A stretch of DNA of 32,000 nt, from positions 870,001 to 902,000 of the forward strand of contig OY970170.1 in assembly GCA_963706795.1 (NCBI GenBank), read 5' to 3'. This DNA comes from Candidatus Saccharimonadota bacterium. GTDB taxonomy: Bacteria > Patescibacteriota > Gracilibacteria > BD1-5 > UBA2023. The notes under the pieces are model-generated. The model was not told where the DNA came from. It searched no databases and saw only the letters and a list, made by a program, of their open reading frames with translations. The translations under genes were made by a program, and so were the position numbers. Shown piece after piece: positions 9,687 to 28,470 of the stretch (the first letter of the stretch is position 1; the number at the start of each line of letters is the position of its first letter).

Positions 9687-10874
9687 ATGTCTCCGTCTCA
9701 TTCGTCTATCAAGCCGTTCTATCGAAATTTTTTCATCACATTGGTACTTTTGTGTCTTGTGAGCTATTTTGTAGCGGGATTTAAGCTCTATTTTTGGACG
9801 CTGTTTCATGGCCAGGACGGCTTTAGTCTCGAGACGCTCTCTGCCTATCTCTCGCTTTGAAGCGCACTTGGTTTTTTTGTCTGACCGATTGCGGTAGATC
9901 GACTCGGCGTGCGCAATACGACGCTATTGTCAGTATTTTTGTGTGTTTCTGGCTTTGCTGGATGACTGTTTTTTGGACAGGCATCATACACAGCTTTTGT
10001 CATTGGTGCGTGTACAGTAGGTACAGGATGAGCCCTCTGGTTAGTTACAAAAAATGTACTCCTGCCCATCGCGATCTGAGAGACGAAGTATTCGGATACC
10101 GTGATTTCGGGGCTTGCGAATGTAGTTTTTACGATTTTTACGATTGTTGGAACGATTGCAGGTTCATTCTTCGCTGAAAAATACGGATTTATGGGCTCGG
10201 GTGGACTCGTGAGTGCAGTCATCCTCGCCACACCATTTGTACTCTTCTTTAAAGAGCCAAAGCTCGAAAAGATTCATCGAACGGGATACGCTTCTTCGAT
10301 CTTTAAGATCATTCGTGAATATTTCCCATATATTCTCTCAATTTCGCTCCTTTGGGCGGTAATTACAGCGCTTGCACAGATCTTTGTAGAGGCATGAGTG
10401 GCACTATTTCATGAGACGCATACACGAGCTTCGCTTCTGCTTTTATGGGCAACGCTCGGTGGTGTTATCGGGAATATCCTCTCGATGAGCTGGCACGAAA
10501 AAAGATGGCAAATCTATCGGTTTGCGCTCGTTGTTTTTGGACTTTTGGTTTTTGTAAGCCATCCGCTCATACACCTTTTCGCAATGATGCACTCGATCGT
10601 GGCATTTTCAGTCTTGGCGGTCTGTATTGGATTTTTCTTTGGAATTGCAGTCAATCTCGTCGAAGGCTACTACTTTTTAAAACTCGAAGCCTCACCACTT
10701 AAATCCTACGGTGCAGCCGTATACGGCCTGGTAGCAAGTATCTCGATATTTTTAGTGATGCACCTGGTGCTTGCTGTCAAGGAGGTGTCGAGTGCAGCTT
10801 CGCTCCTGCTGAGTGGATGCATTATTTTGACGCTTCTCCTGATCTCATTTGGGAATGCTTTTGGGAAGCGTTAG
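9687..10874 (+). CDS. Polytopic membrane transporter, MFS-like, 395 aa
   Basis: ATG 9687 through six in-frame TGA (9858, 9882, 9963, 10029, 10077, 10395) joins track ORFs 10101..10397 and 10398..10874. About 12 hydrophobic segments. Stop TAG. Confidence 0.5.
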
Positions 10875-16299: not shown

Positions 16300-16415
16300 A
16301 GATTGATTTTAAGCTCGAACTTCGCGTTCAAAGCTCCGTTCCTCGTTCAACGTAGCTGTGCTACGCCTCACTACGGTACTCGCTTTTCACGCGAATCTCT
16401 TCGTTTAAATCAATC
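16300..16415 (+). other. 116-nt rod-like imperfect hairpin (long terminator, structured RNA or MITE-like element)
   Basis: AGATTGATTT (16300-16309) pairs perfectly with AAATCAATCT (16406-16415). Inner helices are CGAA/TTCG, TTCGCGT/ACGCGAA and AAAGC/GCTTT. The apical hairpin is CGTAGC-TGT-GCTACG (16351-16365). Confidence 0.4.
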
Positions 16416-19442: not shown

Positions 19443-19450
19443 AATTCTCC

Positions 19451-19481
19451 AAAAAACCTCCAGTAATTTGGAGGTTTTTTT
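19451..19481 (+). terminator. Intrinsic terminator of the ABC gene
   Basis: AAAAAA-CCTCCA-GTAATT-TGGAGG-TTTTTTT. Confidence 0.7.
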
Positions 19482-19597
19482 AACTCTCAAAATTCCGAAA
19501 GTCGTTGACAGGGAAGAGCTTTTTGATAGTGTCTTTTGGAGGATAATTTCGTCCTCGAATACAAATACCTTTTTTAAAAACAGAAAGGAGGACAACC

Positions 19598-20215
19598 ATG
19601 TTATATGGTGTCAGCCATCAGGAGTTTACGGCTCCAATTAAGGGAATCCCTGAGCAAATTGCTCTGCTTAGCGAATCCTTCAAAGAAGAATTTGATCGAA
19701 AGGAAAGCCGAGGTTATGCTGAGTTGTGTATGAAAATACTCACTGGTGAACCATTTCCCTGGGCTCCGCGCGCACCCATTTTTGCTTTTCCTCGATGGCA
19801 GTGCATTGCTGGTACCTACCTTGGTGCGGTGGAGAGAGTGTTTGCAGAGCTCTCAAAACAACATGCTCATTATTCGTTCAGAAACTGTGCCAATGATCAG
19901 GCCTTTGCAAGGCTAGTTCAACCACGTGATCATTGGGAAAACTATGTCCGAAAGAGTCAAAGTGGAAAGCAGGGGAATTCAAAAATCCTCCTCTGGCCTA
20001 TTGATTACATTCAAATGGATAGCGAAGCATCGCCGCGCATTCTTTTTGATAAAGGTGCTGGTCCTCGCTTGAATGCCTTTGAGATGGCGATTATACTCTT
20101 CACACATCCAGAGTTGCTCGTGCGTGATCGTCCTATCAAGATAATTGTACAAGAAGCGCTGAATCCTAGGCCTTTCTACTTTTACTACCATCAAAACGCA
20201 CTCACGTTCAATTAG
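19598..20215 (+). CDS. Hypothetical protein, 205 aa (paralogue 1 of tandem pair)
   Basis: Intact ORF with SD AAAGGAGGA, a TTGACA -35 at 19505-19510, and a TAG-TAA double stop. No internal TGA. Shares motifs with 20435..21034. No family recognised. Confidence 0.6.
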   Translation: MLYGVSHQEFTAPIKGIPEQIALLSESFKEEFDRKESRGYAELCMKILTGEPFPWAPRAPIFAFPRWQCIAGTYLGAVERVFAELSKQHAHYSFRNCANDQAFARLVQPRDHWENYVRKSQSGKQGNSKILLWPIDYIQMDSEASPRILFDKGAGPRLNAFEMAIILFTHPELLVRDRPIKIIVQEALNPRPFYFYYHQNALTFN

Positions 20216-20287
20216 TAATACAAAAACAAAACCCTTCGAATATCCCATCAAACATCTCCCCGTGTTTTGATTGCGAGTTCAATCTTT

Positions 20288-20314
20288 GGAGCGTCTTCGG
20301 GCGCTCCTTTTTTT
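20288..20314 (+). terminator. Intrinsic terminator with C(UUCG)G tetraloop
   Basis: GGAGCGTC-TTCG-GGCGCTCC followed by T7. Confidence 0.75.
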
Positions 20315-20434
20315 GTGGAGGCATAGATTTCGTACTTGTGGTAATTGACAAAATCTCTCTTTCTTTTACGCTACATTTAGCCAATGTTTGAGGGCACATT
20401 TTTTAATACTCAAATACTACAGAAAGGATTAGAT

Positions 20435-21034
20435 ATGAGTGACTTCGTATCTCAACGACAAGAACAACTGGATCAGTTGTTTAAGCTCTACCCAGGAATA
20501 GGTGGATCCGAATCGCAGGTTGCTATGAAGGTGGAATTACCTCCAAAAGAAAAGGTATATCCGTCAGCTACGGCAGAGTATTTTGCACTGCCATGCAGTA
20601 ACGGCTTTGCAAAAAAATATTCTGAGGCGGTAGGTATCGTGCTCGGAGATCTTGCTGAGCAGCAGGGGACCCGGTTTGAGAACTTTTGTTCTCATCTGAT
20701 CGTTTCTGATGAAATTTTTGTCAGAAACGTACTGACCGCCTACGGCATTGCAGATTTGCGCAATGCACAAAAAACAAAAATCCCATCTCTCCTCATTGAT
20801 TTTTTGGAGTATCAAGATGGCCTCAAGCCAACATGTATCATGAATTCCGAGCGTCATATTTCGCTTGGTACATTTGAAGTAGCACTGCTCCTGCAATTAC
20901 ATCCTCATCTGCTTTCTCAGTACGAAGGCAAAAAGTTGATTGTATGTGGCGATGCTATTCGGACTCACGGTAGTCCGCATGTGATGTATTTTTATTACTC
21001 CAATGGCAAGCTCACGCTTAATTTGGACGAATAA
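20435..21034 (+). CDS. Hypothetical protein, 199 aa (paralogue 2 of tandem pair)
   Basis: Start taken at the Met preceded by ACAGAAAGGATTAGAT (the same SD context as paralogue 1). TTGACA at 20345-20350; TAA stop; no internal TGA. Confidence 0.6.
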   Translation: MSDFVSQRQEQLDQLFKLYPGIGGSESQVAMKVELPPKEKVYPSATAEYFALPCSNGFAKKYSEAVGIVLGDLAEQQGTRFENFCSHLIVSDEIFVRNVLTAYGIADLRNAQKTKIPSLLIDFLEYQDGLKPTCIMNSERHISLGTFEVALLLQLHPHLLSQYEGKKLIVCGDAIRTHGSPHVMYFYYSNGKLTLNLDE

Positions 21035-21082
21035 TCTGATAATGTGTTCATATTCTGAATCGCATTGTCATGTATTTGATAC

Positions 21083-21108
21083 AGGGCGTCTTCGGACGCT
21101 CTTTTTTT
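21083..21108 (+). terminator. Intrinsic terminator with C(UUCG)G tetraloop, homologous to 20288..20314
   Basis: AGGGCGTC-TTCG-GACGCTCT followed by a T run. Confidence 0.75.
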
Positions 21109-21193
21109 GTCTCATTTTTGGCATAAACATGATTCGGAAATAGGGAAGAATTTTCTCAAAACCCCGCTTGAAAAAGAGATTGTTTCGCCTATC

Positions 21194-25683: not shown

Positions 25684-26646
25684 ATGGAAAAGAAACAAAA
25701 CCAATCAGAAGGAATGGGATCAGATATGCAGAATCGCTGCGCGTCATACTGCCGCTCTTCGTTCTCTTCACTCATGATCGCTATCATGATCCTCAATCTC
25801 ATCGCTACTGCTGGACTCGCTTACGCGATGTATGACTACAAGACTTCTGGTATTAAGGCTGCCGAAGCAAGCGCTAAAACAGCTATGCTCCAAGTCGAAT
25901 ACGATCGCTCAGGAGGCAAAGAAATCTACGACCTCATTACTCAGGTACAAAAACTCTCTGCTCCACAAACAAAGCAGCAGATCGAAGCAGCTATTAAGCA
26001 ATTAGGTGGTACTACTGCTCCTACAACTACAGATGGTTCGGCTACTACACCTCCATCTACCTCCTCTACTGATCTCACAGCTGACCAGTATGCTGCAATC
26101 ATGAAGGATTCATATGCAGAAGGAAACAAGAGCGCCAAGATTACTCTCGTCGAATATTCTGACCTCGAGTGTCCGTACTGTATTATCCAATACAAGAACA
26201 AGACGATTTCAAAGCTTCAAGAAAAATACGGAGACAAGGTCAATGTCATCTACAAGCCTCTCAATCTCGCCCGTCATCCAGGTGCAGATCAGAAGGGTAT
26301 GGCTTCGCTCTGTGTAGCACAGATCGCCGGTGCTGAAAAATATTCTAAGTTCTACAATGCTATCCTCGATCGTTCAAATGAGCGTGGACCAGTATTCCCA
26401 CTCGATAATATCAAGGCTCTCGCCAAAGAAATCGGTGGTATTGATGCTACAAAGTTCGCCGCATGTTACGATGGTCAGAAGACTAAGTCTGTCTATGAGT
26501 CATACACTGCCGAAGCTCTCGCCCGTGGTGTTGAAGGAACTCCTACAATCATGGTCCTCAATAACGAAACAAAGAAATTTGAACTCGTGAAGGGTGCAGC
26601 TGATGTGAGCTCATTCTACCCAGTCGTTGATCGCCTCATGAAATAA
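25684..26646 (+). CDS. DsbA-family thiol:disulfide oxidoreductase, membrane anchored
   Basis: N-terminal TM, a T/S/P-rich linker, and a thioredoxin fold with the CPYC active site (LVEYSDLECPYCIIQY) and GTPTIMV cis-Pro loop region. Confidence 0.75.
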   Translation: MEKKQNQSEGMGSDMQNRCASYCRSSFSSLMIAIMILNLIATAGLAYAMYDYKTSGIKAAEASAKTAMLQVEYDRSGGKEIYDLITQVQKLSAPQTKQQIEAAIKQLGGTTAPTTTDGSATTPPSTSSTDLTADQYAAIMKDSYAEGNKSAKITLVEYSDLECPYCIIQYKNKTISKLQEKYGDKVNVIYKPLNLARHPGADQKGMASLCVAQIAGAEKYSKFYNAILDRSNERGPVFPLDNIKALAKEIGGIDATKFAACYDGQKTKSVYESYTAEALARGVEGTPTIMVLNNETKKFELVKGAADVSSFYPVVDRLMK

Positions 26647-26661
26647 TCCATTTTGGATAGT

Positions 26662-26696
26662 CCTCCCAAGCTCGCAAGAGCGAAGGAGGGTTTTTT
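26662..26696 (+). terminator. Terminator hairpin after the DsbA-like gene; left inverted repeat of the thyA cassette
   Basis: CCTCC-CAA-GCTC-GCAA-GAGC-GAA-GGAGG plus T6. It is 26/29 identical to the reverse complement of 27799..27828. Confidence 0.7.
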
Positions 26697-26713
26697 AATG
26701 GAAATCGGTACAG

Positions 26714-26740
26714 TTGACATTACGTATTATTACGTATAGT
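26714..26740 (+). promoter_or_regulatory. thyA promoter (TTGACA-15-TATAGT) with two ATTACGTAT direct repeats in the spacer
   Basis: -35 at 26714-26719; -10 at 26735-26740. ATTACGTAT occurs at 26719-26727 and 26729-26737 (10-bp phasing), and each copy contains the palindrome TACGTA. Confidence 0.45.
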
Positions 26741-26834
26741 TCATGACAACTATACCGATTCGGTGGTTTCGATTATTCGGGGCGGATAGCATGTTCTTTA
26801 AATTCAACGATTCTTTTTTCTTTAGGAGGCCATC

Positions 26835-27767
26835 ATGGGTCAACCAACCGCAGAAGTTCAAAAACTGATCGATGCAGCAAAAGCGAGTGAGTATGCAGGC
26901 TATTACGCACATCCAGAATCATGGGGGGATGAGAATCATTTTATTCTTAGTCCTGATAATGAATCATTTGTGGATATGGAATACTGCAAGCTTCAAACGC
27001 ATGTTCTCAATACCGGTACATATAAAGCTGATCGTACTGGCACGGGCACGCTGTCTGTGTTTGGCTATCAGATGCGCCTTGATCTGGACAAAGGTTTCCC
27101 TCTGCTGACGACCAAAAAAGTGCATCTGAAATCTATTGTCCACGAGCTCATTTGGTTTTTGGCGGGTTCTACCAATATCAAATACCTCAAGGATAACGGC
27201 GTCTCCATCTGGGATGAATGGGCTGATGAAAATGGTGATCTGGGGCCGGTCTATGGTTCTCAGTGGCGCAATTGGCCAACACCAGGCGGTGGACATATCG
27301 ATCAAATCAAACAAGTGATCGACCAAATCCGCAATAATCCTGATTCGCGCCGTCTGATAGTTTCAGCATGGAATGTTGCTGATATTCCACAAATGAAACT
27401 GCCACCATGTCATGCGTTATTTCAGTTTTACGTCGCAGATGGCAAGTTGTCGTGTCAGCTGTATCAACGCAGTGCTGACGTTTTCCTGGGTGTACCTTTT
27501 AATATTGCATCCTATGCTCTGCTGACGATGATGATTGCAAAAATCTGCAATCTCGAACTCGGCGATTTTATCTGGAACGGTGGCGATGTGCATCTGTATG
27601 TCAATCATCTTGAACAGGTGGCAACACAGCTGGATCGTCTGCCGATTCGGGCACCAAAAATGATCATCAAAGATCGTGGTCAAGATATTTTTGGTTTTCA
27701 ATTCTCCGACTTCATCCTCGAAGACTACGATCCTCATCCTGCCATCAAGGCGACAGTGGCGGTCTGA
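26835..27767 (+). CDS. thyA: Thymidylate synthase ThyA (proteobacterial type) with 47-aa N-terminal extension; ends on TGA
   Basis: [84 protein letters not shown], and C-terminus [10 protein letters not shown]. Strong SD AGGAGG. The stop codon is TGA 27765-27767; under table 25 the frame stays open to TAA 27987-27989. Confidence 0.9.
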
Positions 27768-27792
27768 AAGAAATGAAAGAATTGTTGTTTTT

Positions 27793-27835
27793 ACAAAACC
27801 CTCCTTTGCTCTTGTGAGCTTCGGAGGGCTTTTTT
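27793..27835. terminator. Bidirectional terminator between thyA and rlmE; right inverted repeat of the thyA cassette
   Basis: ACAAAA-CCCTCC-TTT-GCTC-TTGT-GAGC-TTC-GGAGGG-CTTTTTT. Confidence 0.7.
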
Positions 27836-27846
27836 ATGGTTTATTC

Positions 27847-28470
27847 CTAGTCTTTTTTACCGAGACAGAGGAAATATTCTTCAAAGCTACGATCGCGGCA
27901 GGCTTCTGGTTTGACGCGTTTGAGGTTTTTGTAGCGCTGCATGATGGGAGTGATGAGCTCTTGGATGTCTTCACCAACAAATACTTTAAGCAGGAGATTG
28001 CCGCCTGGCTTCAGCCATTTGTGGGTAAATTCGAGGATGGCAATATTGAGCTCGATTGAGCGATATTGGTCAACTCCCGTGAGCCCCGTCGTATTTGGTG
28101 CGATATCCGAAGTCACTACATCAAATTGCTCAATCTCGAGCTTCTGACAAAATTGTTCAATCTTTGGCGCATCAAAAATATCCCCCTGAAGTACGCGGAT
28201 ATTTTGCTGTCCAAATGGCTTGATCTTTTGGATATCAACTCCAGCGACGACTCCTTCTGGTCCAATAATTTTGGAGATCACTTGGAGGAAGCTACCAGGC
28301 GCGGATGCTACATCGAGAACTTTCATTCCAGGCTCGATGATCTTAAAACGATCCTGGATTTCTATGAGCTTGAATGCGCTGCGTGCTCGGTATCCGAGCT
28401 TCTTCGCTTCAAAAAACCACTTGTCTTGGACAACATATTGTCCTGTACCTTTTTTCTTTTTCGTTGACAC
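27847..28470 (-). CDS. rlmE: 23S rRNA (uridine2552-2'-O)-methyltransferase RlmE/FtsJ
   Basis: 207 aa with a GTG start. Contains RSAFKLIEI, the SAM motif VLDVASAPGSFLQV, and DIAPNTTG. Confidence 0.85.
   Translation of the reverse strand: MSTKKKKGTGQYVVQDKWFFEAKKLGYRARSAFKLIEIQDRFKIIEPGMKVLDVASAPGSFLQVISKIIGPEGVVAGVDIQKIKPFGQQNIRVLQGDIFDAPKIEQFCQKLEIEQFDVVTSDIAPNTTGLTGVDQYRSIELNIAILEFTHKWLKPGGNLLLKVFVGEDIQELITPIMQRYKNLKRVKPEACRDRSFEEYFLCLGKKD

Follow-up and report, generated by a model that had tools for sequence, protein, structure and literature searches.

The 32,000-nucleotide window analysed here (contig OY970170.1, positions 870,001 to 902,000 of the forward strand; assembly GCA_963706795.1, Gracilibacteria of the BD1-5 lineage) contains a thymidylate synthase gene, thyA (26835-27767, + strand), that ends on TGA in a genome that decodes TGA as Gly. 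The gene is best read as a standard-code cassette inserted into this UGA-as-Gly genome, and as most likely a poorly functional, code-incompatible acquisition; the probability of this reading is put at about 0.72. The evidence comes from the end of the gene, the host code, the comparison of the insertion site with relatives, and the translation signals and codon choice of thyA.

The thyA gene and its stop codon

Under the standard code, the open reading frame (ORF) 26835-27767 encodes 310 residues and stops on TGA at 27765-27767. The catalytic core, residues 48-310, belongs to PF00303, an assignment precomputed for P0001, a protein identical to that of the window. In a PDB search, residues 49-310 align with residues 3-264 of Escherichia coli ThyA without a gap and up to the last residue (E = 8e-126), with 174 identities in 262 positions (66%). 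The similarity to this characterised enzyme is full length, and the catalytic Cys (C146 in E. coli) is conserved together with R21, R126', R127', R166, D169, N177, H207 and Y209. A preliminary description of this DNA, made from the letters and without database searches, had ThyA homology ending at this TGA, and the alignment agrees. A free C-terminus at the conserved last residue exists under the standard code but not under the host code.

The core is preceded by an N-terminal extension of 47 codons (26835-26975, + strand), which was also described at that time and is an orphan: close homologues all begin at about query residue 48, and the extension has neither a match in a word-based search nor a Pfam match. 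An exhaustive HMMER search gives only weak matches (E = 6e-5 to 4e-4), to unrelated repeat proteins in which a "YxHPE"-type motif recurs, and these are not taken as homology. Residues 11-29 (window 26865-26921) weakly resemble the motif LADAARAKEVASWYLHPER repeated in P0241-P0244, possibly by chance. The extension may be real, because the Shine-Dalgarno site of the gene precedes it.

The host genetic code

The host decodes TGA as Gly, as had been proposed from the sequence. In 12 pairs of orthologues shared with a relative (L001, a metagenome-assembled genome, MAG, of Patescibacteria), all 10 TGA codons of the window stand opposite GGA, GGC, GGT or TGA, and in the reverse comparison all 10 TGA codons of L001 stand opposite GGN or TGA. 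The 23 host genes all stop on TAA or TAG, and among the genes definable in the window thyA is the sole one to stop on TGA. The reading frames of tsaD, the ABC transporters and dnaX are broken at in-frame TGA codons under translation table 11 and are whole under table 25. RlmE homologues at 61-69% identity carry the names Candidatus Gracilibacteria or Altimarinota, and the closest genome is the Patescibacteria MAG. None of the BD1-5 genomes surveyed in the literature has prfB, the gene for release factor 2 (RF2) (PMC6851277). The window contains no transfer RNA (tRNA) gene.

A lineage-specific insert between two terminators

The thyA gene occupies an insert of 1,092 bp (26699-27790, + strand), in which a putative promoter and a Shine-Dalgarno site precede it and a short 3' tail follows. 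To its left lies a host gene for a DsbA-like thioredoxin-fold protein (25684-26646, + strand; Pfam DSBA/Thioredoxin_4; TAA stop) with host-type codon usage and an orthologue in L001 at 70% amino acid identity, the least conserved of the orthologues shared with that genome. To its right lies rlmE (27847-28470, - strand; TAG stop), the host gene for a 23S rRNA methyltransferase (Pfam FtsJ in homologues), which is convergent with thyA and whose product is 92% identical to that of L001 and 91% identical to that of a metagenome contig, L002.

The insert is flanked by an inverted pair of pre-existing hairpins. The left arm (U; 26659-26698, + strand) terminates the dsbA-like gene; its hairpin has a stem at 26661-26690 followed by TTTTTT and a folding energy of -16.3 kcal/mol. 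The right arm (D; 27791-27830, both strands) has its stem at 27799-27828, with CTTTTTT at 27831-27837 on the + strand and TTTTGT on the - strand; because it folds on both strands (-19.3 kcal/mol for the + strand, -22.7 for the - strand), it can terminate transcription in either direction. This arm is the ancestral terminator of rlmE, which now also terminates the thyA transcript. Together the arms form a 40-nt inverted repeat (I1) that brackets thyA, with 35 of 40 positions complementary (88%). Only these two copies of the hairpin occur in the window, where none would be expected by chance.

Relatives place the boundaries of the insert. L001 is collinear with the window on both flanks, but its dsbA-like gene and rlmE are only ~215 bp apart and no thyA lies between them; there is a single hairpin, in left-arm orientation, which follows a degenerate copy of the 3' end of dsbA and aligns with window 26627-26697. 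In L002, homology to the window begins exactly at 27791, the hairpin is identical to the right arm at 35 of 37 positions, and a different gene lies beyond it. Since each arm aligns with a hairpin in one of these relatives, both hairpins predate the insert, and the alignments put the foreign segment at 26699-27790, exactly between the hairpins. Formation of the inverted repeat by the insertion itself is rejected, since the two arms have separate orthologues, one in L001 and one in L002. A genome-wide repeat was likewise rejected: among the fetched loci, the spaced pattern of the hairpin is matched only by L002, and the spacing of the L001 hairpin differs.

What fills the intergenic site next to rlmE varies, which makes it a hot spot; more distant relatives have other cargo there: glycine-rich and pilin-like proteins in L085 and small ORFs in L086. 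In L085 (2120-3913; RlmE at 75%), the region between rlmE and the dsbA-like gene encodes a 199-residue protein made mostly of glycine runs and a 304-residue protein whose N-terminus has a pilin-like methylation motif. If the two arms were joined directly, they would make a near-palindrome of 80 nt, which might be fragile. Two independent short-read contigs from a relative (L083, 6625-6652; L084, 4149-4178) end 28-30 nt past the rlmE stop, inside the hairpin, whose palindrome appears to break the assemblies there; these contigs therefore do not show the junction. The decayed dsbA copy in L001 (10625-10687; reverse complement 9932-9994) duplicates the 3'-terminal ~20 nt of that gene, TTGATCGACCGATGAAATAAT. 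It matches the window copy at 18 of 21 nt and lies just before the hairpin, ~150 bp past the real dsbA stop and a separate terminator. Such a remnant suggests a past replacement or rearrangement at the dsbA/rlmE site.

Upstream of thyA, the only promoter-like hexamers are TTGACA (26714-26719) and TATAGT (26735-26740), which form a possible promoter with a 15-nt spacer; a promoter scan of this region calls none, the short spacer being the reason. A palindrome with 25-nt arms (inverted repeat I2; 26703-26760, + strand; 80%) overlaps the possible promoter and may be an operator, carried in with the cassette, or a leader structure. Rfam finds nothing at gathering thresholds and only chance-level matches in 26600-27900.

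Foreign translation signals and codon choice

The thyA gene departs from its neighbours in how it is started and how it is spelled. A Shine-Dalgarno site, AGGAGG (26824-26829, + strand), stands 5 nt before the ATG at 26835, whereas the 23 host genes all lack one; the only other example precedes a second inserted gene (start 19598, AAGGAGG). The regions upstream of host genes (e.g. starts 1559, 6942, 15411 and 25684) are pyrimidine- and AT-rich, and the organism seems to start translation without Shine-Dalgarno pairing. Leu is encoded by CTG in 16 of 29 cases in thyA (55%) versus 58 of 860 in host genes (7%; Fisher p = 3e-11), which use CTC (58%) and CTT (23%). Gly is encoded by GGA once in 23 cases (4%) versus 197 of 532 in the host (37%; p = 6e-4). 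Overall, thyA prefers CTG, GGC, GGT, CGC and CGT, and its Arg codons are all CGC, CGT or CGG. Both the Shine-Dalgarno site and the CTG-rich Leu codons had been noticed in the preliminary description, and they stand out against the whole set of host genes.

Other measures of codon usage discriminate less. The absence of internal TGA from the 310 codons, cited earlier as a further difference, is true but carries no weight: at the host share of TGA among Gly codons (7%) its probability is 0.19, and 10 of the 23 host genes likewise have none. A leave-one-out codon likelihood does not separate thyA from host genes (z = -0.4). A G-test flags it (z = 8.3), yet also flags strongly biased host genes, namely dsbA, L10 and one for an ABC transporter. 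What is diagnostic is solely the direction in which the codons are biased (CTG, GGY, CGY).

Origin of the gene

Apart from the identical P0001, the best ThyA proteins in a search of 5.8 billion clusters are 74-77% identical. Most of the top matches are unnamed; the named near homologues come from Methylophilaceae, Undibacterium, Sulfuricella and Adhaeribacter, so that the closest named groups are Betaproteobacteria and Hymenobacteraceae, ordinary standard-code Proteobacteria and Bacteroidota. The two top homologues whose DNA was read, L087 and L089, end in GTC TGA and GTA TGA, on the same stop as thyA. These two, both among the unnamed matches, sit in ordinary proteobacterial contexts, hom-thrC-thyA-mutS and thyA-folA, with 55-59% GC and 70-71% DNA identity. 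Among the named or context-checked matches, none comes from a table-25 organism. No donor could be identified, the best identities being 77% in protein and about 71% in DNA. Given a nearest ThyA at 74-77%, ordinary contexts and TGA ends, the donor was therefore probably an unsampled standard-code bacterium, and the TGA at 27765-27767 would be its stop.

A phage or plasmid origin finds no support, with the best viral ThyA at 73% and plasmid DNA at about 70% or less. In one viral locus (L007), an apparent match to residues 4-310 dissolves on inspection, as a stop codon separates the upstream part from ThyA.

The preliminary description had proposed a recent acquisition from a standard-code donor that had not adapted to the host code. 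The acquisition stands, with the insert absent from L001 and L002 and the foreign signals retained. Recency is not supported: the insert can only be called lineage-specific and may have entered anywhere on a long branch, because DNA identity to the nearest comparators is no more than about 78-80%. The lack of a closer donor, the host-like GC content and the mild tetranucleotide deviation lend no support to a recent date either.

Read-through and the predicted fate of the product

Under table 25, the thyA frame continues through its TGA (27765-27767, + strand) for a tail of 74 codons (27765-27989, + strand; GKKGKNCCFYKTLLCSCELRRAFLWFIPSLFYRDRGNILQSYDRGRLLVGRVGGFCSAAGWEGGALGCLHQQIL) to the next in-frame TAA or TAG, the TAA at 27987-27989. 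The product would have 384 residues. Recomputation gives the same tail as had been described before, running through the terminator and antisense into rlmE. It holds seven TGA codons, six of them beyond 27765-27767. From 27791 on, the tail consists of host intergenic DNA and antisense rlmE, crosses the hairpin, and has neither a Pfam match nor an alignable C-terminal domain, so the extension is not a domain. Its length is ordinary for this window, where ~35% of random positions and frames stay open for at least 74 codons when only TAA and TAG count as stops. Directly after thyA, positions 27765-27782 form a tandem pair, TGAAAGAAA TGAAAGAAT, in which the standard code would read two TGA stops at a distance of three codons; the host can use neither as a stop.

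The terminator modifies this picture. A terminated messenger RNA (mRNA) lacks a usable stop, because the T-run ends 24.3 codons past the thyA TGA and no in-frame TAA or TAG occurs before 27987. A product with 74 extra residues, predicted earlier as the outcome, is thus sound as an open frame but would probably not be the sole product.

The following course of events is proposed. A complete-looking thyA cassette, from promoter to stop, would have entered the variable spot between the convergent terminators of the dsbA-like gene and rlmE, and would have kept its donor features: the Shine-Dalgarno site, the preference for CTG, CGY and GGY, and the TGA stop. With UGA read as Gly, the ribosome would continue into the rlmE terminator. 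Transcripts that end at the terminator, ~24 codons past the TGA and without UAA or UAG, would be non-stop mRNAs, whose product would be rescued by trans-translation and probably tagged for degradation by transfer-messenger RNA. Where transcription passes the terminator, the product would be ThyA with 74 additional residues. By either route, ThyA would lose the free C-terminus that closes its active site. Deletion of the C-terminus of thymidylate synthase reportedly abolishes formation of deoxythymidine monophosphate (dTMP), as described by Carreras and colleagues in 1992 and by Perry and colleagues in 1993. The C-terminal segment of the enzyme forms the lid of the closed active site (PMC5148040, whose reference list includes the Perry study of a C-terminal deletion). 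On this sequence-based argument, a compromised enzyme is the most likely outcome. A single G-to-A change at 27766 (TGA to TAA) would repair the gene, and it has not occurred.

Alternative explanations

Several points weigh against an acquisition that works poorly. The comparison of composition with the host gives a divided answer: codon choice is foreign, but the tetranucleotide distance of thyA is only mildly unusual (z = 1.4, top 9% of windows; tri- and tetranucleotide distances together lie in the top 7-9%), and its GC content and its GC at third codon positions (GC3) equal those of the host. The insert contains no integrase or transposase ORF, no tRNA gene and no direct target duplication. 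That the host has tRNA-Gly(UCA), ssrA/smpB, thyX and folA and lacks prfB is assumed from the lineage. The evidence for inactivation concerns deletion of the C-terminus and not its extension. Finally, thyA is fully intact with every catalytic motif kept, which is unexpected of a gene that has long been useless; it may be old and maintained, implying a working tailed product or a different handling of UGA. These last features are what would be expected if thyA works despite its TGA, with the tail tolerated, or removed by factor-mediated release or proteolysis once the ribosome has stalled at the hairpin or at the end of the mRNA, or with UGA poorly decoded in this context. The 310-codon frame and its motifs, the host-like GC3 and the unselected one-base repair, as if the stop had no cost, all speak for it, as does a deoxycytidylate deaminase gene in the relative L083, from which it follows that the lineage makes deoxyuridine monophosphate (dUMP) and needs a thymidylate synthase. 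It is nevertheless unlikely. No host gene of the window stops on TGA, and there is no sign of any processing. To our knowledge, no thymidylate synthase carries a C-terminal extension, and in the fused enzymes with dihydrofolate reductase that we know of, thymidylate synthase is always the C-terminal part. The reported lack of RF2 in the lineage (PMC6851277) argues in the same direction. A more specific form, in which the UGA of thyA yields a functional enzyme in an RF2-less UGA-as-Gly bacterium, through context-dependent termination (hairpin plus mRNA end) or a rescue that releases near-native protein, is highly improbable; if true, it would be a natural bacterial example of a UGA with two meanings or of gene expression that depends on ribosome rescue.

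The age of the hairpins and the host-like GC3 could also be accommodated if thyA were an old resident, ancestral between both hairpins and lost in the relatives. Both hairpins predate the split, and the left-type hairpin of L001 lies directly against the rlmE stop, as would be left by a deletion reaching up to rlmE. Such a history would, however, require independent losses in L001/L083, L002, L085 and L086, would leave the strong CTG bias and the Shine-Dalgarno site uneroded, and would have to explain why no other protein exceeds 77% identity in the clusters searched; it seems quite improbable. An assembly artefact, with a foreign read or contig joined into a Gracilibacteria contig, would account for a segment of foreign composition and code, and the relatives' short-read contigs do break at this hairpin, 28-30 nt past rlmE. 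Both junctions, however, lie within host sequence common to relatives, the hairpins are diverged copies (35 of 40 positions matching) and not a collapsed repeat, the one contig recorded with the identical protein is 1,267,896 bp long, and a chimeric join would require both hairpin flanks to occur in the foreign genome as well. An artefact is accordingly given the least credence of all. The foreign, code-incompatible cassette remains the preferred explanation.

Comparison with known systems

The window protein has the features of short ThyA enzymes of the E. coli type (PF00303): the residue-for-residue alignment with 3-264, the Cys in PCH, the dUMP-binding arginines and the IKAxVA[VI] end. It differs in its 47-residue orphan N-terminal extension and in having no host-code stop at the conserved C-terminus. 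As in a report of horizontally acquired thyA in Patescibacteria (PMC12455944), a genome of this group (also called CPR) has received thyA from other bacteria. The text of that report makes no mention of the genetic code, whereas here the recipient reads the donor stop as an amino acid. Standard-code-compatible phages predicted to infect Gracilibacteria and Absconditabacteria (PMC10746230) likewise bring DNA without in-frame TGA, some of it with TGA ends, into code-25 hosts. Those phages are reported to place backup stops close behind the TGA (PMC10746230); in thyA, by contrast, the next TAA or TAG is 74 codons off, beyond the terminator, and no phage gene is nearby. With intergenic genomic islets between convergent genes, the insert shares lineage-specific cargo, atypical signals and different cargo in relatives. 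Unlike such islets, it lacks the integrase, transposase, tRNA gene and direct-repeat duplication and is bounded by inverted, pre-existing terminator hairpins.

In kind, this is a horizontally acquired thyA, as already reported for Patescibacteria, with a predictable code mismatch; it is no new system or mechanism. What is new is a bounded insert between two convergent host terminators, together with the prediction of a non-stop transcript. Alternative codes are often proposed as a barrier to incoming genes, and natural genes with a mismatched code have rarely been described singly. Here the defect to be expected is well defined (24 to 74 added residues, or tagging for degradation); together with the one-base repair, this allows a direct test of what a code mismatch costs. 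In a reduced genome, the insert further marks a small hot spot of recombination flanked by two terminators that mirror each other.

A second segment absent from the relative

Another stretch of the window, 19443-21151, is absent from L001, where the empty site lies at about 16325-16348. Two ORFs lie in it, 19598-20215 and 20384-21034, which are distant paralogues (28% identity, E = 2e-6) and have no Pfam match and no internal TGA. An AAGGAGG Shine-Dalgarno site, of a kind the host genes lack, precedes the first, and each ORF is followed by a similar GC-rich hairpin and T-run. The junctions of the segment have a common direct repeat, TCTCAAAAYYCCG, near 19485 and near 21155.

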